Positions 13,298 to 61,527 are shown, counted from the first letter of the whole stretch. The stretch is DNA of 62,036 nt, filler included, from Vannella sp. (GCA_023345925.1; 7 parts of 7 records of this genome joined end to end with filler, not necessarily neighbours in it), one strand, 5' to 3'. A program made the numbers and translations. The notes: generated from the letters alone by a model not told the origin.

Positions 13298-14227
13298 ATG
13301 ACGCGGTCTCGCTTCCTCAGTGTTGGGCATTCTACAGCTCCCTCAATGGCAGGCTCGGAGCGGATATCTTCATCTCAGTGGGAGCCTATCCCAGTCATCA
13401 TTCCCGTTCGTCATGAGAATTCAGGTTCGGAGGATCCAAACAAGCGGGTCAAGTCCACACCTCCCAAGTCTCCTCAGGCCAAGTCTTCCACGAAAGAGTT
13501 GAAGACAGGGTTCCCAGCGACAAGAGCGACAAGAGCTCTCTCTGGTGGGAGTAACCAGGGAGCGGATACCATCTCTGAGGGAGGCTGGAACCCCGAGAGG
13601 ATCACGACTCCCCAGTGGGATCCAATCCCACTCCACATCCCCTTGCAACGTAGCAAGAGTAAACGATGGCTCTTCTCGACCCCCCAGAAGTCTCCCACAC
13701 CCCCAAGGTCCCCCACATCTCACAACTCATCCACACTTCCTTCAGAGGAACCAGCAACACAAGTAACACTACGAGGCAGGCTACAAAAGAACTCGAACTC
13801 CCGACCCTCCTCCATCAAAGACCTCCGCCTGTACCGCGCCCTCATGGAACGGAAGAAGGAGAATCCCCTCTCTTCAGGAGTGGTATGCTCCATGTCTGAC
13901 CCAAACGTTGCCAATCGGAAGCGTTGCACAAGTACGACCAGCCATCCCAAACGAAGGTCAAGGTGAGGAGACTTTCCCGTTCTGTTCGGCAAGGGCGCTC
14001 ACTCACGTCTTGCTGGCAGAACGTCACATTCAGATGGAGCTCTCAGAGAGGAAATAGCGCAAACGAAGGCAAGGCTCGAGCGTCAGCAGAAGAAGACCTC
14101 AGAGAAGTTCCCGGATCCGCTGAAAGACCTGACGTGGGTGGAGATAGTCCAGCTTCATATCGGTCTTCGCCTCCGCCTTCAAAGACTTGAGGAGAGAATG
14201 CTCCTCACCTCCAACAAACGAACTTGA
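13298..14227 (+). CDS. Orphan protein, paralog A (disordered basic region + C-terminal coiled coil); 1 intron
   Basis: Shares the MTRSR start, SSIKDLRLYR and the last exon EEIAQTKARLERQQKKTSEK..PLKDLTW..HIGLRLRL with the next gene. Confidence 0.75.
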
Positions 14228-14510: not shown

Positions 14511-15229
14511 ATGACACGGTCCCGTTGCATGAGCGTGGATCATCGTGGTGCGGGCGCGGACTTCATCTCTAACACTGACTGGAGGAAAGAAAGAGTTTCT
14601 ACAGCTCTGCGGGAGCCCATTCCTCCTGTTCACTCTGCGACTGTCAGCCAGAGAGGAGATGCATCGAAACGCCTTGTCCCACTTGGGACTCCAAAGGCAA
14701 ACCCATCAGTGACGCCAGCAGCGATCAAGGAGGAACCACCAGTCGAAGTCCTGCTTCGGAAGGGTGTGCGGCTCCCTGAGAAGAAGTCACGCCACTCTTC
14801 AATCAAAGACTTTCGTTTGTACCGTTCCATTGTAGATCGGAGGAAGGTGGAACACCGCAGGTCCATGGGTGGTGCAACACTCACCTTGTCTGACACCCAT
14901 GTGGTCTCTGAACGCCGGATAGGGTATGACAAGAGCAGGCATAAAGCAACCATGAAGAAGCGCACGTCAAAGTGAGTACATCGCTCTCCTCCTTCCCTTT
15001 GCTCACTCAGGTGGGTGTCAGGTTGCCGACACAACCAGATGCAGGGGCATGCAGAGAGGACATAGTGCGCACAAAGGCGAGGATTGAACGACAACGGCGT
15101 AAGACCTCAGAGAAGATAGGCCCACTAAAAGATCTGCCATGGGAGGATCTGGTCCACCTTCACATCAGCCTCCGGTTACGTCTCAAAAGCCTGGAAGAGG
15201 TTTTACTCTCTTCAAACAAACCTAAATGA
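14511..15229 (+). CDS. Orphan protein, paralog B; 1 intron
   Basis: MTRSR start, SSIKDFRLYR, last exon EDIVRTKARIERQRRKTSEKIGPLKDLPW..HISLRLRL. Phase-2 intron at the same position as in paralog A. Confidence 0.75.
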
Positions 15230-15551: not shown

Positions 15552-17060
15552 ATGGGCTCGCTCTTGTTGCTGACACCAGACAAGGAGGTAAAGAAGGAAA
15601 TCATTGAACCCAAGGCGGAGTTGGTGGGTACCAAGAGGAGTAGGTTCGCTCTGCGTACTAAATCCCGAGAAGGAGAACACTCCCCTGCAGAAGGCTTGCG
15701 AGAAGGGTGATTTGGAGGATGCCATCAAGCTGATTCAAAAGAAACGCACGGAAGTGGATGTCCGTATCTCCTACGGTGTCAAGCGACGCGTCCTCCATTG
15801 GGCTTGTGATGAGGGACATGTCGGAGTCGTGAAAGCTCTCATGGCCCGTGAGGATGTCAACATCAACCAGCAGGTGAGCTCTCTCCTCCTCTCTTTGTCC
15901 ACTCTCTCACACCTTTGAAGAACGGACAGGGTGTAAGTTCGTTCTCCCTTCGCCGCCCTTCTCTAAAGAGCAACAGAACACGCCCCTCCAGGTCGCCATC
16001 ATCAAAGGGAACCAACCTCTCTTCGACCTCCTTATCGCTAACCCTACCGTCAACGTCAACCTCGCCGCAGAGTACACCCGCGCAAGAGTAGGACTCTTCC
16101 CTTGTGCCATGAAGGCTTGTGGGAGCTCACAAAGGCGAAAGGCGGGTTGGGACATCAACTTTATCCCTCCTCTGGGCTTAGCTGCACATTACAAGCGTCT
16201 CTCTATGATGCAAGCGTTGATAGAAGCGCGCAAAGACTTGGACATCAACAGCAAGGTCAGTTCGGCCTCCAAACGAGTGATTGTCGCATCTCTGACTCGC
16301 TGTGTAGTACACCGTGAACGCCGTCGGTAGCGAAACACCTGTAAGTGTGAAACATAGTTGTCACGCTGCTCTAATCACTTGAGCAGTATTTCCCTCTCTA
16401 CCAAGCTACCAAAGCTGGTTTCGTCGAAGGGGTGGAGCTTCTGTTGGCTCAAGAGACGATTGACGTCAACCACGAGGTAAAGAAAGCAACAAGTTGACTC
16501 ACTTCACATGATTCACTGTGGAACAGGAACTGGGAGTGAGCATACAGACCAAAGGGGAGGGGAGTCCACTTTCTGACACACGAGCAGCGGAAGCTGGTCC
16601 AAGAAGCATTCACGAGAAACGAACCACCTATCATTCGACTCCTTCTCTCTCGTCCTGACATCGATCCCAACCCTGTCCCCCACACACGAGATGAAGTGAG
16701 TTCACCGTCCCGAAAGAGCAAACTAACGCCAGAAGGAACATGCGCTGTCTCATGCATACCACTGTGGCCTTCTTGACGAAGTCAGCATGCTGCTGGCCCA
16801 CGAACGTTTGGTTCCACTAGATCTGGAAAAGGTGGTACGTAGAAGGTCCCCTTGACCCGCCCTCCCCTCACCCCTTCCTACAGAAGAAGCTAGTTGCAGA
16901 GCCCATCCGAGGTGATGCCGCTGGCCTCGAGTCAGAGGTCCGCTTCCACTTTCTGGGAATTCTGTGCAACCAATTGAATCTCCCCGCTTCCGATCTCCTT
17001 CCAGAGACCGATCCGATCCTCCCTCAGCTTCTCAACAGGAAGAAGTCCGCTTACAAATAA
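15552..17060 (+). CDS. Multi-exon ankyrin-repeat protein, cluster copy 1
   Basis: TPLQKACEKGDLE, VLHWACDEGHVGVVKAL, TPLQVAIIKGN, PLYQATKAGFVEGVELL. Ends NRKKSAYK*. The start and some exon boundaries are tentative. Confidence 0.82.
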
Positions 17061-17137: not shown

Positions 17138-20100
17138 ATGCCCTTGTGCTGGCCCGTTGCGTGTTTGGAGGACCGGGAGTGGAGGGAAGAGCGTCAATCA
17201 GACTTTCTAGTGTTGCAAGTGCGAGGAGAGGAGCGGCGCGTGCTGCTTTTGCACAATCACTTTGTTGTGGCCACAGCAATTGGGACGGAGGAGGCAGAGG
17301 AGCTTTGGAGCGCGTGTACGCACGTCACAGAGGTGGTGAGTAACCTCTGCTTTGTTCATCGTTCTCTCATACTTGTAGGCCAAATCAGGGGGTCGTCTGG
17401 TAGCTGCATTTGAGTCGTTGTGGGAAGAACAACGCGATGCGGATGATTCCGACGATGATCTCCCTCAGGACTGTGAGGAGGCCTCTCCTCCATCTTCTCC
17501 TGAAAGAGCAGGTTGGAAGACGGCAGAGGTTCCCTTGAAAGCCTCGGAAGAAGAGTGCACACAACCTCACAAGCCGAGAATAAGCACTTCCCGAGCTTCC
17601 TCTCCCTTACCAGGGCCTCCAGCCTCTATCATCTCACTCCCTTCTGAGCCAGTCGAGCTCTCTAGTGAGGAGCAAGAGCTGCTCTCTCAATTGCTTCTCT
17701 TACTTCGAGAGGAACGCCAGAGAGTGTCTCAACGCCTTCACGTGTTGGGAGGCCCTTCGAAAGGGCCCAGTCATCGGTTACTAGCAGGGCGGTCTTATCT
17801 AGCACGAGCAATCGAGGATTCCCCATTCGAGGGAGCAAGTTTTGCCCCCTTCCATGAGGGCGACTTGGTTGTCGTGGTTGACCACTCGCAGGCCGACCTC
17901 TTCTACGTCCAGACCTCCTCTTTCTTTGGTGTAGCTGCGCGTGTTTCTTTCAAGCTACTCAAATCACTGTCAAACGAGCAAGTCACTAAGAGAGTTCGGA
18001 ATGAGGATGTTTCTCCGCCTGGAGGACTACTTCCACAGACTTCTGGTGTAAAATGGAGTCAAAGTGAGGGTCACATGAAAGGGTGGCTCTTTAAGCAAGG
18101 CTATTGGGTCAATCGAGAGTGGAAACGGCGTTGGTTCTCTCTTGACCTCTCTATTGGGCGACTGTACTACTCAGTATCACCCGAAGATGAAGCCAAAGGC
18201 AATTACCGAGGTTTCATTCAACTCAGAGAAGTGACCACAGTTCACGAGAGTTTCACAGCTGCCATGAATCGTCACTTGCAGCGAGGGACTTGGCCGTTAG
18301 AGATTCACACCCCACAGCGCGTTTGGATTGTAAGCGCAGAGTCTAAAGAAGAAATGGAGGCTTGGATCCATCACATCAATCAGATTGCCCTTCTAATGGA
18401 CCACCGAAGTGGAGCACGTACTTCCTTCCATCTGGAGCACCGGTCAAAGGTACTCGTAGGTGATATATCCGTATCCACAGGAACTTTCACTCCAGGTCGA
18501 TCCAAACAAGTCACTCATACGATGCACCTTTCCACAAACAAGTCAGAAGCTGAGGAGCTGCGGAAAATCTCCTCTCATGCCACACAAAAGGATCCAAAGC
18601 AACTCAAAGAGTTCCCTTTGGATGATTTTTCAGCTTTTGGAGCGCCAGATGGGGAGGAAATCACGAACAAACAAACCATCTTTGCAGAGATTGACCGTTG
18701 GTTGGGGCATCGCAATCCTCCCGATGTGGAGTATATTTACGTGGAGCCTTATCTTAATTATGCATCTGGCAGCGTCATGCTCACTGCCAACCCATATGGA
18801 CACTCGGTAGTCCGCTACACCTTACCAGATACCAAAGAGCAGCTTCTGATGAACATTGTTGGACTAGCTGAGCATGAATTGGTCAATTTCCTCTCCCCAG
18901 AGGACTTTTTCTTCTCGACAAACTTCGACACGAAGATTGGAAATGAACAAGGAGGCATTTACAACCGTAACTTTGCGAGCGTGAGAGTGCAAAGAGTCCC
19001 TCCAGAAAAGATTCTAGCTATGCACCAATACTTCCTCGACCTTCACGCGCGCTCAAAAGGGAGCTGGGCAGACTATAACATTCTTTTGGGACCTATTCTG
19101 AACCGTATCAGCAGCACTCATTATGGTAATTGCGCTCACTGGTCATCTCAAGGACTCTTACAAGCAGGGGTCATGAAAAAGACATCCATGTACCCTAAAT
19201 CTATCTGGATTGAGATGTTTGAAGATCTTCTGCAAGATTCTCAACAGGAGAGGATTTCAAATAACGTTTCCGTTGTATATTACAAGCGGGCTCTACACGC
19301 CAAGCGCTTTTATGGAGAAGATGCCGACTGGACGGGATGGGGACGTGTCACAGATTACTTTAAGAGGGGTTATGATAACCTGGAAATCTTTGCCGACGCT
19401 ATTGTTCACGTTCCGGCGGGCACGAAGACTGCAGTGATTACTTCTGGACCAAAGAGCACTTTAGCTTTAAGAGAGAACCGAATCCGTCTGAAAAAGCAAC
19501 AGGGGCAGTCCATTGTTGATGTGCGATTTGATATTCATGTGGATCCTCGAACACTTTACAATGAGATCTTTTACAAACGTTTCAACATTACCACGTTTGA
19601 AGAGACTCCGATTAACAATCAACTGTTCACTCTCACGGAGAGACCGTACAAGTTGTTGGGGTGTGGATATCCAATCCAAAATAATTGTTGGCGTGTGGAC
19701 CATTCCGACCAACTATTTAAGACCTCAATGGATGAAGATGTGCTCACCTGGATTCCTATAGCGCCTCCAAATCCTGAGAGTGAGCTAATTGATGGTGCAG
19801 AATGTGTGTACTCAATCTTGGCTCCCGGAGAGGATGGCAGCTGTTGGATAGTGCGAGGGAAACGTCTTTACTTTCGCTCCTGTGACTCACTTGATTGGAC
19901 TTTCATTCCCTTACCTGCAACACTGGGCTCTATTCGACATGTTTCTACTGCCTCAGCAGAAGAGGGTGCGTTTATCTTAGATTATGAAAGTGTGCTCTTC
20001 TCTTGGAAGATGGGCAGCTCCTTCGATTCTCCTGATAACTGGAAACTCCTTTCTGAGACACCAAAGCAGTTGCGCTTTGTTTCTGCTGGAATGGGTCAAG

Positions 20101-21214
20101 AGCTCTGGGGACTGACAGAAGAGAATAGTGTTTTTCGTAGGGTCTGCTCTGAGCGCTTCCCTGATGGCAGATGGATCCAATTACATGGTGCCCTGCTCAA
20201 GTCATTATCTGTAGCATCTCCAGAAGAGGTGTGGGGAGTTGATACGCAAGGGCGAGCCTATGTTTGGAATCGGAATGAAGCCCACCAAGAGCTCTCAGAG
20301 GATGTTGAGCTCCAATCCAGTCAAGAAGCGACTCAGATGAGCTGGCAGAGTCTTGGTAATGTGCTGCCTCTTGATACGATTCATGTTAATAGCCACAAAA
20401 TTCCCTGGGGAATGAGTGAGAAGGACCACGGATTCATTTACAAGATAAGCTGTCGCCGCCTCTTGGTCGTCAGCGTTAAGTCTGCCAGAAAGATCTGGGA
20501 CGACCGAGGAACCAAATGTGGACCATATCGCGTTGGGTGAGTTAGGATGGCCTTTATTGGGATGTCTCTGTGCTCACAAAGATTTCAGGTTCTGGCGTCC
20601 CATCACACCGAGGAAATTCTACTCACTTGGGGATGTGGCGGAGAGGAGCCATTTGCAGAATCTTTCCAACGAAGCCATTGTAGTTTGTGAAGTTGGGCGA
20701 CGGCCAGGTGAGGAGCCTATTCTCATTGGTCCACGGTCATTCGACCTCGTTTGGGAGTATGAATCTTCAGAACAGCAATTTGGTGCGTTTGACATCGTCC
20801 AATATCGCTTTAGCTCTCCTGAAACTGATTCTCTTGACAGAAAACTGTTATATCTGGCGTCCTATTGCCCCGGAAGGATACGTCGCGTTGGGAGATGTGG
20901 TAACAACCAAGAAGGAACCACCAGAGAGAAACACTATTCGTTGCGTTAATCGCAGGTTCCTGCACCCTTCAAAACACTGTAGCATGTCCAAAGAACGAAA
21001 ATTTCTGTGGAGCAACGAAGGCTCTTCGAAGATTCGCTCGTCTTCAGCAGTGTCCATTTGGCTCACAAAACCTCGGCTGGACTCGCTCTGGTGCAATGTC
21101 TTTCGGTGCATCCCTGGCTACCACCCTCCGGACTCGGGAATGTTCTGCCTCAAGTTGGCTGTTGCCGGAACCCAAGGCAAGCTCTTGGAGAAGAAACCTC
21201 GTCCGGTTAATTAG
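17138..21214 (+). CDS. Large multidomain protein: SH3-like, PH, putative permuted papain-like peptidase, tectonin beta-propeller repeats, Vps62/DUF946; 3 introns
   Basis: PH MKGWLFKQG..WKRRWFSL..EMEAWIHHI; NPYGHS...GNCAHW; tectonin-like LRFVSAG..LWGL and LKSLSVAS..VWGVD; Vps62-like KIWDDRG, FWRP..LGDV, IWRPIAPEGYVALGDVV. GT-AG introns join the frames. Confidence 0.82.
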
Positions 21215-21360: not shown

Positions 21361-21850
21361 ATGGGACGATGAGAAAGGTGCACGCCATCTTTTCAGATCA
21401 ATCGAAGCACAGTCGTTAAGGGGCCAGAATGGTGGTGAGTGAGAGGATTCTTGTTCGTGGAAGACTGGGACTGAGGGATATACATACATCTCCACTCCTT
21501 CCGGCACCCCTTTGCAGCTACATTGAAGCTGGTGACTTCAAAAACGCGGTCAAACTCATCAAGGATCCGAATACAAATGTGGATGTGGGCATCTCTAATG
21601 GAGAATCTGCTCCCCTCGCATCGTTTGGGTGAGCGAAATGGGACATGCAGAGGTGCTCGAAGCTCTTATGGCTCGCAAGGACGCCAGAATCTGCAAAGGG
21701 GTGACAGTCCTTTGGACAAGCATCGACAAAGATTGAGTGATGCCTGGTTGGTGAGGTCCAGTGTTTGACCCCGCCTTTTGGTGAAAAGAACGAGCAGAGA
21801 GCTTTGAATACAGCATTCAAATTGGACTTTTTGGAAGGAGTGGAATAAGG
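21361..21850 (+). pseudogene. Degenerate ankyrin cluster copy 2
   Basis: Homologous to 22152-23497 (PLCSYIEAGDFKNAVKLIKDPNTNVDV), with a frameshift before PRIVW..GHAEVLEAL, missing internal exons and a premature stop after DFLEGVE. Confidence 0.75.
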
Positions 21851-22151: not shown

Positions 22152-23497
22152 ATGGGCAAGGCAAGTGCGGTGTTGCGCTTGGGTCGCTCTGGAAAGAAGG
22201 CGACAGAACCACTAAGGGGCCAGAAGTTGGTGGTGAGTGGACGGCTGCTCGATTCTCAAACACTCGGCTGAATCAAGGTGTAGGAAGGCACTCCTTTGCA
22301 GCTCTGCTGCGAAGCTGGTGACTTAGAAAAAGCTGTAAGGCTCATCAATGATCCGCACACTGATGTGGATGTGCGTATCTCCATTGGAGAAGCGGGGGCT
22401 TGCTTCCCTCGCATCGTTCACTGGGCGTGCGAAAACGGACATGTGGATGTACTCGAAGCCCTTTTAGCACGTCGTGTAGACTGCCAAAAGACGGTAAGAC
22501 AAACCTTCCCCTCCTGTTGGAGTCTGACCCTGATTGAAAGAATGGGATTGGAGTGAGTTCGTCTTAGCTTCCTCTCAATGGCCTTACCTGAGGATTGACT
22601 AGGAAACCCCCATCCAAGTAACAATTCGTTATGGGCATCTCAGAGTATTCAACCTTCTAGCGCCTTGCTGCAAGCCTGAAGATCTTTTAGACTTGGCAGT
22701 GAAGTACAAGCAAATCTCCATTCTGGAACAAGTGTTGGAACAGTACCGAGTTGTATTGGGAGATAACCAGTTGGTGAGTGATATTTGGCATTCAGAGATG
22801 CCCTTTTTGATCAAGAGGACGAGCAGGAGAGTGCCCTGTACGAAGCAGTCTATTTGGATTTTTTGGAAGGAGTGGAAGCTATTTGCAGGACCGTCGAGAG
22901 TCTGCTACAAGGGGTGAAGTTCACATCTCCCTACTCAACTCCACTGACGAAATAGGACAGGAGATGGGGGTAAAGGAGCCTGTCAATCGGTTAGAGTACT
23001 GACCTTTGAGAAGAGAGGTGTCGTAGAAAGAGCTTTCAATTACAGAAGGCCAAGTTCCATCAAGTTCCTGCTAGGACGTCCCGATATCGACCCCAACCCC
23101 AACCACCCCCAAGATTATTCAAAAGTGAAGCTCTTCTTTCACGTTTCCTCTGACTTGGACTGATCTGGATCAATAGCACGCGCTCTGTTTGGCATATCGA
23201 CACGAACTGTTGGATGAAGCAATGATGCTTGTTAGTCATGAACGATTTGAAGTACCAGACTTGGACATTCTGGTAAGGCTCACCGTCAATTCACTTACAA
23301 GCAGGTCACTTCCGGAACTCAACCACTTGCAGAGAGAAATATTCAAACAACCGGGCCAAAGGCCACCAGAGTTCCGGTTGAACTTTGCCAGAATGCTATG
23401 CCAACTCCTGAATGTTGTGGCGGGAGACATTGTGGGGGAGGACGATGCTATGTTTCCTCTTCTTCCTGCTAACAAGAAGAAGTCTGCGTACAAATAA
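22152..23497 (+). CDS. Multi-exon ankyrin-repeat protein, cluster copy 3
   Basis: MGKASAVLRLGRS, TPLQLCCEAGDLEKAV, IVHWACENGHVDVLEAL. Ends NKKKSAYK*. Intactness of all exons was not fully verified. Confidence 0.8.
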
Positions 23498-23843: not shown

Positions 23844-24125
23844 ATGGGCAAGGCGAGTGCGCTTTTGCGCTTGGGTCGCTCTGAGAAGAAGAAGGCAGAG
23901 GAGGTAGTTAGGAGGCCATTACGGGGGCTTAAGTGCGTGGTGAGGGAGCGTGCGTTCGTTTCTCGAACACTTTGTTGAATCATGGTGCAGGAGGGCACTC
24001 CTTTGCAGCGCTGTTGCGAAGCTGGTGACATCGAAGAAGCCGTCAGGCTCATCAATGATCCAGAGACTGACGTGGACGTGCGCATCTCCAATGGAGAAAC
24101 GGAGATATGCTTCCCTCGCATCTAA
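23844..24125 (+). pseudogene. 3'-truncated ankyrin cluster copy 4
   Basis: Exon 1, intron and start of exon 2 closely match copy 3. Homology stops abruptly at CFPRI-TAA. Confidence 0.78.
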
Positions 24126-24395: not shown

Positions 24396-27300
24396 TGAGA
24401 TCAGCTTTTTGATGATCTTCTGACATTCAGGAGCATTTACCAACTCGTGGTTTACGAATCGGATGGTGACTGAAGATCCAGCGCCAATTCCAATTGCTCC
24501 AGGAATAGGAAGGGGAATCACCAGGGGGGAGCTTTCTTCGGCAGACCATTCGGGATTGGGTTCCCAATCTATCTTGCGCGGGAACTTTGTCTTATCGTTG
24601 ATCTGAACACGAGCCTGGAAGTCGATTGAGTAGTCTTGGCCCGATTGGTACTTGGGATTATCAATCTTAGTGGACCAAACCTGCTGGCCCTTTTCCAATG
24701 CCTTACTGAGGCTCAGGCAATCATTGATGTCGTAAGGCTTCATACTTTCATCGTCATCCTGCCAAGAAAAGATGAACTTCGGTACTTCCATGGTGGGAGC
24801 TTGCGTATCTCTGAGTTCCGACTCTAAGCTTCCAGTCGAAAGCCCAAACTCCGTTTCGAGGGAATCAATCAGATTCTTAAAGCGCCCTTGAGTTGACTCC
24901 ACCAGTCTTATCACCTTCAGGCTTCCTAGGTCGACATTGGTTGCTTTTTTAATCGCACCAGCGATGATTCCACAAATCCTTTCCTCGATCTCAGCTCCGG
25001 CTTTGTTGAAGATGCCTGAACTTATCAACGGGATAGCGATGGATCGGATGTTGAGCTTCTTTGCCGCATCCAGTACTTTGACAATCAGACTCTCAAGAAC
25101 AATCTCGGCAAGGTCAAGATCACTCGATTTCTCCCAAGTGGGACCAACCGCATGGATGATGTGTTTGACTCCTTGGTTCGCAAGATTTCCGGACTCACCA
25201 ATCCGGATTCCACCTTCTTGAACCGGACCGTTGACAGAAACATCCAGGTGGGAACTAGCTTGGATGTCAGCTACCCTCTGAATAGCTTTTGCGACACCCC
25301 CACTATGCTGAAGATTGCTGTTTGCCGCATTAACGATAGCGTCAACTTGTTGTCTTGCAATGTCTCCGCGGAGGGCTTCAATTGTTACTCCAAAGACTTT
25401 CTGGCGATAGCCAAGGCGGTGGGGCTTCTCCGAATGGGAAGAGTTGCCTAAATCCACCCATGTTCCAGTGCGATTCGCAAACTCGTTCAGTTTGGTCTTA
25501 TACTCTTCGAGTAAGAAGGCCTCCTCTTCTGCAACAGGGAAACTGATAACCTGGAAGTTCTCTTCCATCTTTTTCACATAAGCGGAAATCCGCTTCGATG
25601 CCTCAGAGACCATGGATGCCGGACCCTGGAGGGTGTAAATGTGCTTGCCTGCTGCTGCAGCTTTCAATGTTACCTGTGGGTAATGCCGCATTTCGTTGTC
25701 GAAGAACTTTTTTACGCCTTTTTTGCATGCTTGACGGCAAAGTGGGAAGCCTTTCATATCCACTTTAGCAGACTCTTGACGTTGTGAAGTAGTTCCAGTA
25801 AGTAATGCGGTGATTGCATCGATAGAGTTCTGTGGGCCGATGAGCTGCAGAGACAAGGCATCGTAATCGGAGATAAGCTCAGTGGAGTACTCTGTCATCA
25901 AGTACTCAAGTTCAACGTTCTTGTTGGCTTGAAGCTCCTTTAACTTCTTCGCAGTCATGGGCAATGTGACACTCTGAATGTTCAAAGCCTCAGCACGTTC
26001 CAGGGCGGCATCAACCTGGTCGACTTCCCCAATGAAGATCACTTTGTCTGGTCGGCGGATACCACACACAGATAAATCCTCCCATGCACTAGAGAGAAGT
26101 AGCTCCATCCTGTTCTGAGAGACTCTGACTTTGAAAGGCTTCGTAACTAGATCGATGTCTAGTCTCTCAAATGCAGCATCCACATTCTCTTTCAAGCCTT
26201 TGATACGGTATCCATAGCCACTTCCCTTTGCAGCGGCCTTCTTCTTTGGATTCGGTTTGAAGAGCTGAATCCGAACACTGCAGACCTCTTCTGTCTCGCG
26301 GCATAGTTGTTGCCCAGGTTCGCTCCACCAAGCAGGGAGCTCTTGTGAGAGATTGATGGTTGCGGATTTCTCCGCGTGTTCTTGGAGCCACTTCTCCACA
26401 AGTTCTACTTCCGAATCAAGCGAAGAGACAAAACCACTCAGGACGATTCCTCCTTCATCTGGATTCGGAATAGCTTCCACAGCTGGGTCAGTGAAACCGA
26501 AACGGTTCTTCCAATCAGTTTGTTTCTGCTCTGCAAGGCGCCTCACATCTGCTTTGCATTCAACAACTAGCTTTAGGTATTGTCGCTTACTGAGGTCACT
26601 AATGGCCCTCTGAAGTTCCATTCGGAGGCTGTCCGGAGCCAAGGCAATCACCTGAGTTCCTTCAAAACCAAAGAAGAAGTCAGGATACAGCTTTTTGCAC
26701 CAGCTGACAGTCTCTTTTGTTGACGAAGAGGCCCTGAATGACTTTTGGCAGACCGTCGTTTGCCAACCCTGGAGATTCACCTTGTCTTCGAAGAGCTTGA
26801 AACAGACAGTGCAGTTTTGTCCATTCCTCTTAACTTTGAGAACGTTCGTGGCTTCCCAGTCCTTGACTGTATCTGGTTCGCACTTGCGGAAGAAGTTCCA
26901 GTAGAGCAGAGTGATCGGAAAGTCAAAGGTTTCGTGTTCGTCATTCTCATCGTAATCGTCATCCTCCTCTTCCTCTTCCTCTTCCTCAAGCTTGATGGGC
27001 TTCACTTTCACTCTCTTCTTTGCTGAAGTCTTTGGTTGAGGTGTGCCTTGAATGGGAGGGGTCCCCGCTTTGTTCTTTTGATTGGGTCTTTTGGGAGTTC
27101 TCACTCCCCCTCCGTTCGTGGTACGAGGGCCCTTCTTAGTAGGAGGGGGAGGTGCGTGACGGAATCCGCATACTTTCGTACAGCTGTCTTTCATGAAGTG
27201 CATGCAGTTTCGCCCCAGCTTTGGTGGAGCAGCGGGCACCTGCTTTCCATGTGCATCGAGAATGGGGTGGTCGTCGAGGCACTTGCGGTCATTACAGCGA

Positions 27301-27578
27301 GACTTGAAGCGGCAAAGAGAACCAGTGTAATCCGGTCCTGCAGAGGAAGCCTGTCGAGGTGTTGGTGGTTGGGAGCCTCCATCTTCTCCACAGTGGCGGT
27401 TCCTGCAACCGGTTCCATATGAACACAAGTTGTTTAGATGGTACCTGCAGTTCAGTGCAGCCTCGGCGGTAGCAGCAGGTCGCTCCGCACCATTAACGAA
27501 GACGGTGTGGACCAAGTTGCAAGCTTTGTCCGCACAACGAGAGCGATTGGGGCACTTTCTCAGGGAGTGCGGCTCCAT
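24396..27578 (-). CDS. CCCH zinc finger x4 - KH-like repeats - macrodomain - WWE protein (PARP14/PARP9/ZAP-like); C-terminus cut by the contig end
   Basis: Four CCCH fingers; KH-like segments (YRIKGLKENVDAAF, LQLIGPQNSIDA, YTLQGPASMVSEA); macrodomain GDIARQQVDAIVNAANSNLQHSGGVAKAI..IIHAVGP..IAIPLISSGIF; WWE-like FSWQDDD..KPYD..YSIDFQARVQIN..RKI. Confidence 0.88.
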
Positions 27579-27898
27579 AGACCGGTTCCCAGAGGGCTCC
27601 AACAGGACCATGAAGGAGGGGGAAAGGTGAAAATGGCTCATCCAATGAGAGGAAGGGATGAATAAAAAAAGGGCCAGTGATTGGCTGGAAAAAATTGCTG
27701 CTCTCGGGTTAGTTAGCATTAACATAACTCTTGTAAAATTGATTAAAAGTCAGACACTGTTATCCTGCTGGCTATTGTTCTAATCGGAATCTTTCGAAGT
27801 TTTTTTTCCTTGAAATGGTCGTTTTGGTTTAGGTGCACCTCCTCTCCTGGGCATTTGTTTGTTGCGAGGCGTCTGGGGTCAGTAATCTGAGAGTGGAT

Positions 27899-60372: not shown

Positions 60373-61527
60373 CTATATTGAGGCGCAGAAGTAGGGGGAA
60401 TAGCATCTGTGAGACAGAGAGGGACCATCTGTATCGTACTGATCCTTGGAGATCCATTTCTCCTGGAAGGTCGAGAGCGAGGCGAGAATGCTTCCTCCTA
60501 TCCAGGCAGAGTACTTGCGTTCTGGTGGTGCCACGACGTGGACTTTCGTTGTAATAGGAGTCAACTCATCGAGCTCCTTGTACAGTCTCTCTGGAAAGCC
60601 TGGGAACATGGTAGATCCGCCACAGAGGAGAACATTGTGGAACAAATGGTTCCGCACATCAATGGCACAGCTCATGATGGCATTGTAGATCAAAAGATGG
60701 ATCCCTCCCGCTTCCTTGGCTATCAGAGAAGGCCTGAAAAGAACTTCCGGACAGAGAAAGCGCTCCTCGTTCAAGGTAATCACCTTCCCATCAGGAAGTT
60801 CGTACTCCCGTGCACTTGCAGAGGAACACGTCGACTCTGACAGCTCTTGGTCAAAGTCTAAGGCCACAAAGCACAGTTTCTCTTTGATCTCTCGTACGAT
60901 CTCCCACTCTGCTGTGGTGGTGAAGGCGTAGCCTTGAGCCCGGAGGATCTTGGCCAAGTAATCCGTCACATCCCGCCCCGCCAGGTCCAATCGAGCGACT
61001 CCGTGTGGTAGGGCAAAGCCATCGGTGATGGGGATGACGTGGGAGACCCCTTCTCCTGAGTCTATGACCATGGCGGTGTTGCGCCCTGATGCGTAGGCGG
61101 CCAGGATGGAGGAAGTGGCTATGTAGACGGCTGGGACCTTGAAGACTTCGAACATAATCGTCATCATCTTCTCTCGATTGGCTTTGGGCTGAAGGATGGG
61201 CTCTGTAAGGAGAACGGGATGCTCCTCGGGGGAGATGCGGAGCTCGTTGTAGAAGATGTGGTGCCAGAGCTTCTCCATAGCTTCCCAGTCACGAATGATT
61301 CCGCGGGTTATCGGATACTGCAAAGCCAAGGCGAACCGCTGGACGGACGCCTCCTCCCCGTATCGGGTTCTCTCACCCGCCCCAATCATCACAGGCTCGT
61401 GCAAAGGCCGACCTACAAGGGTAGGTAGGACAACTCTTGGTGCATCTTCACCTGCAAACCCCCCTTTCGTGACGCCACTGCCACAGTCCAACACCAGAGG
61501 CAGAGCAGTCTGGTCCGTACAGCTCAT
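60373..61527 (-). CDS. Divergent actin / actin-like protein; intronless
   Basis: [71 protein letters not shown]. Confidence 0.95.

Follow-up and report, generated by a model that had tools for sequence, protein, structure and literature searches.

The stretch of DNA analysed here, called the window in the following, comprises 62,036 nucleotides from Vannella sp. (GCA_023345925.1), in which seven parts are joined end to end with filler. It carries a four-exon gene (Table 1), which encodes a single multidomain protein of 1,307 residues without internal stop codon. The centre of this protein is formed by a core domain, which represents a family without earlier description, by its predicted fold within the known superfamily of permuted NlpC/P60 enzymes, and which is flanked by a conserved N-terminal domain, a probable degenerate SH3 domain and a PH domain on the one side and by tectonin-type propeller repeats and a beta-tripod on the other side. 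An initial sequence-only reading had assigned this region to one protein and its span coincides exactly with the start-to-stop extent of the gene.

The three introns are all of the GT-AG type and have lengths of 43, 52 and 58 nucleotides. The splice model is supported by the ortholog P0034, an uninterrupted open reading frame (ORF) of 1,285 residues on a contig of 3,948 nucleotides, because the alignment with this continuous frame runs through all three junctions without a gap. P0034 might be either a transcript or an intronless gene; it shows the same domain order as the window protein, its first four residues are identical, and the core domain is 77% identical compared to 21–54% for the other domains. 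Moreover, the eukaryotic locus L065 (60% guanine-cytosine content) encodes this set of domains in identical order and contains introns. In the gene call P0042, the similarity to the window protein ends at the position of intron 3. The window DNA is also present in biofilm metagenome runs of one study, and short pieces, mostly of 98–100% identity, occur in runs of three further studies. That the architecture is an artefact of the assembly or of joined separate genes might be argued from the fact that no public contig piece covers the whole gene; however, core, PH and tectonin share one 1,052-codon exon, P0034 and the intron-containing L065 keep the domain order, and a protein from a Luapelamoeba transcriptome carries core, tectonin and tripod in one chain, by which this highly improbable explanation is largely refuted.

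Table 1. Features of the four-exon gene, with positions counted from the first letter of the window unless another sequence is named
Feature	Position	Strand	Remarks
Four-exon gene	17138..21214	+	exons 17138-17335, 17379-20536, 20589-20782, 20841-21214
Exon 1: start codon and conserved unnamed N-terminal domain, about 70 residues	17138..17335	+	41% identity to P0034
N-terminal domain, copy in L065	920-1144		
N-terminal domain, copy in P0034	1-78		
Intron 1, 43 nucleotides, phase 0	17336..17378	+	GTGAGT...TAG; gap-free P0034 alignment across
Probable degenerate SH3	17790..17969	+	without the Trp pair present in the L065 ortholog
PH domain	18072..18386	+	Pfam PF00169, E 2e-12; 54% identity to P0034
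Core domain, unnamed family, predicted circularly permuted NlpC/P60 papain-like fold	18633..19457	+	model, structural matches, profile
His541 (core His57), predicted catalytic base	18801..18803	+	starts core strand; 153/153
Asn558 (core Asn74), predicted third triad residue	18852..18854	+	next strand; N 161, D 3, S 1 of 165
Cys651 (core Cys167), predicted nucleophile	19131..19133	+	first residue of helix; 167/167
Tectonin-type beta-propeller repeats	19680..20450 (boundaries approximate)	+	Pfam PF19193, E 1.3e-10, about 19926-20282
Beta-tripod ('Vps62'/DUF946-type)	20460..21150 (boundaries approximate)	+	Pfam PF06101, E 4.5e-10; split by introns 2 and 3
Intron 2, 52 nucleotides, phase 2	20537..20588	+	GTGAGT...CAG; L065 intron at the same codon position
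Intron 3, 58 nucleotides, phase 1	20783..20840	+	GTGCGT...CAG; gap-free P0034 alignment across
Exon 4 and stop codon	20841..21214	+	

The core domain family and its predicted fold

The core has no family match in Pfam or NCBIfam. A search with the single core sequence gave 2 matches and a two-sequence profile 33, and 32 of these, all but the fragment P0001, were then combined with the window protein into an alignment. The resulting profile matched 653 clusters at E ≤ 0.001, of which 477 remain at a cut-off of 1e-10 and 260 at 1e-30. The family counts refer to the best 150 of the 653 clusters and are hence biased to close relatives; residues were counted over 171 stored proteins (median length 338 residues), using the rows covering each column, and motif counts and the tree are based on 142 core domains after dropping 30 partial or duplicate proteins. 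The bulk of the relatives are standalone proteins from protists and bacteria, with close relatives of 41–43% identity in bacteria, and members with a name were found in Balamuthia, Luapelamoeba, Phalansterium, Vermistella, Naegleria, Acrasis, Entosiphon and Elusimicrobia. In addition, the atlas matches contain further bacterial clusters of about 230 residues (score 0.95). Catalytic Pfam families were matched neither in the 33 members nor in 77 of 134 new proteins, and the four of these 77 with any Pfam match had PH, Tectonin or Vps62 only. NCBIfam gave a lone stray match (E 0.052) in one of 33 proteins, PADLOC matched none of 94 proteins, and a plasmid tblastn search resulted in no relatives. 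Likewise, three viral-contig pattern scans and a phage tblastn search, which are limited in sensitivity so that giant-virus copies are possible, gave no viral relatives. On the sequence level, searches of the PDB with the core returned non-significant rows only and the family profile found none at E ≤ 10. As side observations, several eukaryotic short forms (P0002, P0004, P0018, P0025 and others) have basic, acid-poor leaders resembling mitochondrial targeting peptides, which by a crude rule are present in 15 of 40 proteins, some of them bacterial, and the intron-rich eukaryotic contigs L066, L067, L069 and L070 contain pieces of core domains that are 41–74% identical to P0034.

Two short motifs, NPYGHS from 18789 on, which contains His541, and GNCAHW from 19125 on, which contains Cys651, had suggested a papain-like enzyme in which the histidine precedes the cysteine. 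The two motifs exceed a chance occurrence: of the proteins in which both columns are covered, all (149 of 149) have the two residues, and His57 and Cys167, as they are numbered in the core, are kept in all 142 core domains. No other cysteine is present in the core of the window protein, and its eight other histidines are conserved in only 2–88 of 130–142 rows. The median spacing from the histidine to the cysteine is 114 residues and to the third residue 16 residues. Furthermore, Gln106 and Arg112 of the core are invariant polar residues, and the motifs QxGxYxR (109 of 142) and GNCxxW (125 of 142) are specific for the family.

The AlphaFold2 model of the core has a predicted local distance difference test score (pLDDT) of 87 and a predicted template modelling score of 0.88, with His57 on strand E57-63, Asn74 on strand E70-75 and Cys167 opening helix H167-177. 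A wide structural search over 48,161 chains resulted in three chains with Z ≥ 8, all of which are permuted NlpC/P60 enzymes: TseH (PDB 6v98; Z 10.3, root-mean-square deviation (rmsd) 3.6, 150 aligned residues), BcPPNE (Z 8.5, rmsd 4.0, 159 aligned) and YiiX (Z 8.4, rmsd 3.1, 139 aligned). Next came RID (6.8), a chain of a Euglena respiratory supercomplex (8iuf_E7; 5.7), DeSI (4.9), PLAAT4 (4.4), CLN5 (4.1) and Aichivirus 2A (4.0), with 3.1 at rank 10, although values of Z < 8 perhaps reflect just a common arrangement. Leaving aside the Euglena chain, the other eight of the top nine belong to the NlpC/P60-type or permuted papain-like proteins. The core is therefore predicted to have the permuted papain-like NlpC/P60 fold, and Cys651, His541 and Asn558 are predicted to form a catalytic triad, whereby the juxtaposition of His and Cys would follow from the fold match only. 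By the model, the matches and the conservation of both residues, the early suggestion of a permuted papain-like core is supported.

Accessory domains, history of the fusion and genomic neighbourhood

The Pfam matches of PH, Tectonin and Vps62 all exceed the curated cut-offs, and the accessory domains are putative lipid or glycan binders as judged from their sequences. In the tectonin region, five blade-like motifs are present at 19686-20229. The SH3 segment of the window protein has no Pfam match; L065, however, passes Pfam SH3_2 at this position (23.7 bits versus a cut-off of 21.8) and aligns with the window segment in hhalign with E 6e-5. The model of the window segment contains five short strands with a best pLDDT of 85 and values of 51–55 in three of five models, weak PDB matches comprise myosin VII, Crk and Grb2 chains (E 0.24–1.8), and the conserved tryptophan of the peptide groove is missing, so that this segment is probably a degenerate SH3 domain. 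The N-terminal domain had not been named initially and is without match in Pfam or PDB. Exon 1 scores 30.2 bits with a profile of P0034 and L065 compared to 7.3 for the best shuffle (910 scored of 1000). A weak PX-like atlas match (score 0.86) is a lead only, and the domain is reminiscent of the start of TBC1D8/9 proteins.

The C-terminal part, for which P0034 gives PF06101 with E 1.1e-15 over residues 1084-1281, had been described as Vps62-like repeats. This name does not hold, as according to PMC7613979 (Levine 2022) the link of the beta-tripod to Vps62 is a spurious alignment and protein binding is suggested, and PMC8624791 describes the beta-tripod as a target-recognition domain. The region is thus better called beta-tripod, and the Vps62-type match is therefore no evidence of vacuolar sorting. 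As a summary, of the domains proposed initially PH and tectonin are confirmed by Pfam, SH3 probably persists in degenerate form and 'Vps62' has to be replaced.

In a FastTree tree of the core domains with midpoint root, all six long forms, i.e., the window protein, P0034, P0042, P0057 (Balamuthia KAL6069790.1), P0077 (Luapelamoeba transcriptome) and P0067, group together with a support of 0.88, and the three PH-bearing long forms are a subclade with a support of 1.0. Since the six long forms form one clade, tectonin and tripod were likely added once, with moderate tree support, and N-terminal domain, SH3 and PH were likely gained later in the subclade. Balamuthia and Luapelamoeba have one short and one long paralog each. 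These relationships would be in line with, but are no proof of, an amoebozoan source of the window. Among 131 short forms, 27 have a hydrophobic segment at the C-terminus. In Elusimicrobia, the core is found at the C-terminus of a peptidase M3 (L001 2790-5831), of a starch synthase (L004 3036-5828) and of an unnamed domain (P0016); the four Elusimicrobia loci have no neighbouring gene in common.

The architecture, which had appeared unfamiliar from the beginning, is undescribed in the literature searched. This search, outside of which most subscription papers lie, resulted in no work on Vps62 and tectonin together and in none that brings together TseH, permuted enzymes, eukaryotes and amoebae. 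The main text of a papain-like classification from 2023 (PMC10318531) is without Naegleria, amoebae and TseH; its supplements might list a member.

The window is eukaryotic DNA with short introns, and the neighbours of the gene are typically eukaryotic (22 ORFs scanned) and comprise BTB, RCC1, Macro-WWE, RhoGEF, SUV3, Ras-family and actin-like genes. Upstream on the plus strand, two tandem intronless paralogous ORFs (13298-13966 and 14511-14975) share 35% identity over 131 residues (E 2e-15); both are basic and Ser/Pro-rich, and the first has no Pfam match. Ankyrin-repeat genes start on the plus strand at 15604-15876, 21507-21703, 22284-22472 and 23988-24095, with 46–58% identity to the first, so that at least four related ankyrin starts form a local array around 17138-21214. 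The minus strand carries at 24396-27725 an extended ORF, which encodes Macro and WWE domains as well as Cys/His-rich repeats at the N-terminus and resembles a PARP14-like ADP-ribose protein, and at 60373-61527 an intronless divergent actin of 384 residues, which has similar scores of about 530 bits with all conventional actins.

Possible functions and comparison with known families

With a probability of roughly 0.5, the core might act as a cytosolic phospholipase A/acyltransferase, which is recruited to a membrane by PH, SH3, tectonin and beta-tripod. Cys651 would attack the acyl ester of a membrane lipid to form an acyl-thioester, as the structural neighbours suggest, and the acyl group would then pass to water, giving a lysolipid, or to another lipid. 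The window protein contains no hydrophobic or signal-like segment (19-residue Kyte-Doolittle maximum 1.13), and by its anatomy it would thus be cytosolic, with the added modules replacing a membrane anchor: PH might bind phosphoinositides, and tectonin and tripod might recognise glycans or proteins of the target. The weakest step, which we put forward only tentatively, is the site, possibly the endo-phagosomal membrane in a cell that feeds on bacteria; the action at phagosomes or in xenophagy named in the sequence-only reading is likewise a mere possibility.

Lipid acyl chemistry, one of three enzymatic options named in the sequence-only reading, is favoured because the nearest characterised structural relatives act on acyl groups. 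According to PMC12994826, Tox-Act1 is a phospholipase, TseH acted as a phospholipase in one assay out of two, and DUF4105/Lnb is an acyltransferase. Similarly, PMC3142127 reports a fatty acid bound to YiiX and describes the S1 pockets of permuted enzymes as hydrophobic. For PLAAT3, a review (PMC10102619) describes a relocation from the cytosol to damaged organelle membranes via its hydrophobic tail. A further-reaching and unlikely version would be a sensor-enzyme made of one chain, which would detect glycans exposed on damaged phagosomes or on bacteria that have escaped and would subsequently degrade or remodel this membrane; sensing as in galectins and an action like that of PLAAT3 would be united in a single polypeptide.

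Several observations weigh against the lipid enzyme. A common fold by itself does not demonstrate function and the activity is a prediction, as is the binding by the accessory domains. Foldseek gave nothing for the core at E ≤ 0.001, with TseH at rank 17. Between the core and YaeF/YiiX there is no Pfam match and the hhalign probability against 12 members is 1%, and for Lnb the probability is just 22%, without Pfam match and with an alignment that stops short of the cysteine. The sources cited above for activity also report that TseH was inactive in a mass-spectrometric lipid assay (PMC12994826) and that BcPPNE bound lysine (PMC3142127). At core Tyr148, a candidate for the signature tyrosine by our own assignment of equivalence, phenylalanine prevails (F 111, Y 30, W 1 of 142). 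Moreover, the tripod signature DxG(S/T)GxxxD is strictly present in none and partially in two of the six long forms, and 104 of the 131 short forms lack a hydrophobic tail. The Elusimicrobia cores are fused to unrelated enzymes and, therefore, fusion partners need not indicate the substrate.

Instead of lipids, proteins might be the substrate, and the core might add or remove acyl chains on lipoproteins of engulfed bacteria or on own membrane proteins. RID and IcsB are lysine fatty-acyltransferases. RID ranks fourth and CLN5 eighth in the structural ranking, IcsB_M occurs in 12% of the members of one atlas cluster (score 0.90), and Lnb is the better of two profile matches; CLN5 was reported as S-depalmitoylase. 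All these matches are weaker than TseH/YiiX, though, the IcsB_M share is only a lead, and a tyrosine 5–8 residues before NC, which is typical of the Lnb set, is found in only 11 of 142 core domains, leaving protein acylation or deacylation as a rather doubtful alternative.

It is still more doubtful that the core is an amidase or peptidase acting on a small amide such as an N-acyl amino acid or a peptidoglycan fragment while the propeller grips the bacterial surface. The invariant Gln106 and Arg112 would suit a polar subsite, TseH was initially proposed as endopeptidase (PMC12994826), BcPPNE/YiiX were proposed to cleave amides of fatty acids and amino acids (PMC3142127), and a human tectonin is reported to bind lipopolysaccharide. 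However, a protein without signal-like segment and with cytosolic PH/SH3 would seldom meet cell walls, and the same two papers describe permuted members as lipid-directed.

Finally, accessory domains might aim an isopeptidase for ubiquitin, SUMO or ATG8 at tagged membranes. DeSI is among the structural matches, and the PH and tectonin domains are reminiscent of the autophagy protein TECPR1, which combines both. DeSI nevertheless scores 5 Z units below TseH, the PPPDE/DeSI motif YxLxxxNC occurs in none of 142 core domains, Peptidase_C97 is unmatched in the 33 and 77 proteins scanned, and the close relatives with 41–43% identity reside in bacteria, which are not known to have these tags. The proposed deubiquitinase or deSUMOylase is therefore a weaker reading than lipid acyl chemistry and improbable.

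The core represents a family of at least 653 clusters without Pfam or NCBIfam model, with members in amoebae, heteroloboseans, a euglenid and bacteria. The permuted NlpC/P60 enzymes, which repeatedly prove to be lipid enzymes, would thereby gain a branch rich in eukaryotes. The long form illustrates how soluble binding modules could aim such an enzyme and offers access to the beta-tripod, which is poorly understood, and to tectonin propellers of the cytosol. If the lipid enzyme acted at the phagosome, a component of the defence of amoebae against bacteria would be newly added. If the sensor-enzyme were true, phagotrophic protists would have, in common with bacteria, a large and so far undescribed family of lipid enzymes with permuted papain-like fold, and one amoebal branch would have fused a lipid enzyme to a lectin propeller and a beta-tripod.

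Among the known families, TseH/Tox-Act1 is the best structural match and there the histidine also precedes the cysteine. However, TseH shares only 9% identity with the core, TseH/Tox-Act1 are secreted bacterial effectors whereas the core is part of a eukaryotic multidomain protein, and the core is longer and has the family-specific motifs in addition. YaeF/YiiX (Peptidase_C92, PF05708; PDB 3kw0, 2if6) follow with Z 8.4–8.5. The spacing from the histidine to the third residue is 16 in the core compared to 15 there, as between His49 and Glu64 of BcPPNE; the third residue is Asn in the core but Glu in YaeF/YiiX, and the candidate signature tyrosine is mostly Phe in the core family. Lnb/DUF4105 (PF13387) shares a GH..R motif, its histidine being in register with Lnb_N (hhalign E 0.001, 26 members of one phylum).

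The beta-tripod serves as accessory module also in plant VPS13M and GNIP1Aa, and for these proteins, as for TECPR1, no papain-like core is described in the literature consulted. With PPPDE/DeSI, the core has the permuted His-Cys order in common, and with LRAT/PLAAT (PF04970) the same fold order and likely a similar chemistry. However, the initially suggested membership in one of these families is not supported: the NCEHF(V) motif of LRAT/PLAAT occurs in 0 of 142 core domains, an LRAT Pfam match is absent as is one to Peptidase_C97, and the structure is nearer to TseH/YiiX, so that the core, as judged from sequence, is a member of neither. It is twice as long as LRAT/PLAAT, and the window protein has soluble modules instead of the hydrophobic C-terminal anchor, whereas some of the short core relatives carry a C-terminal hydrophobic tail like that of LRAT/PLAAT.

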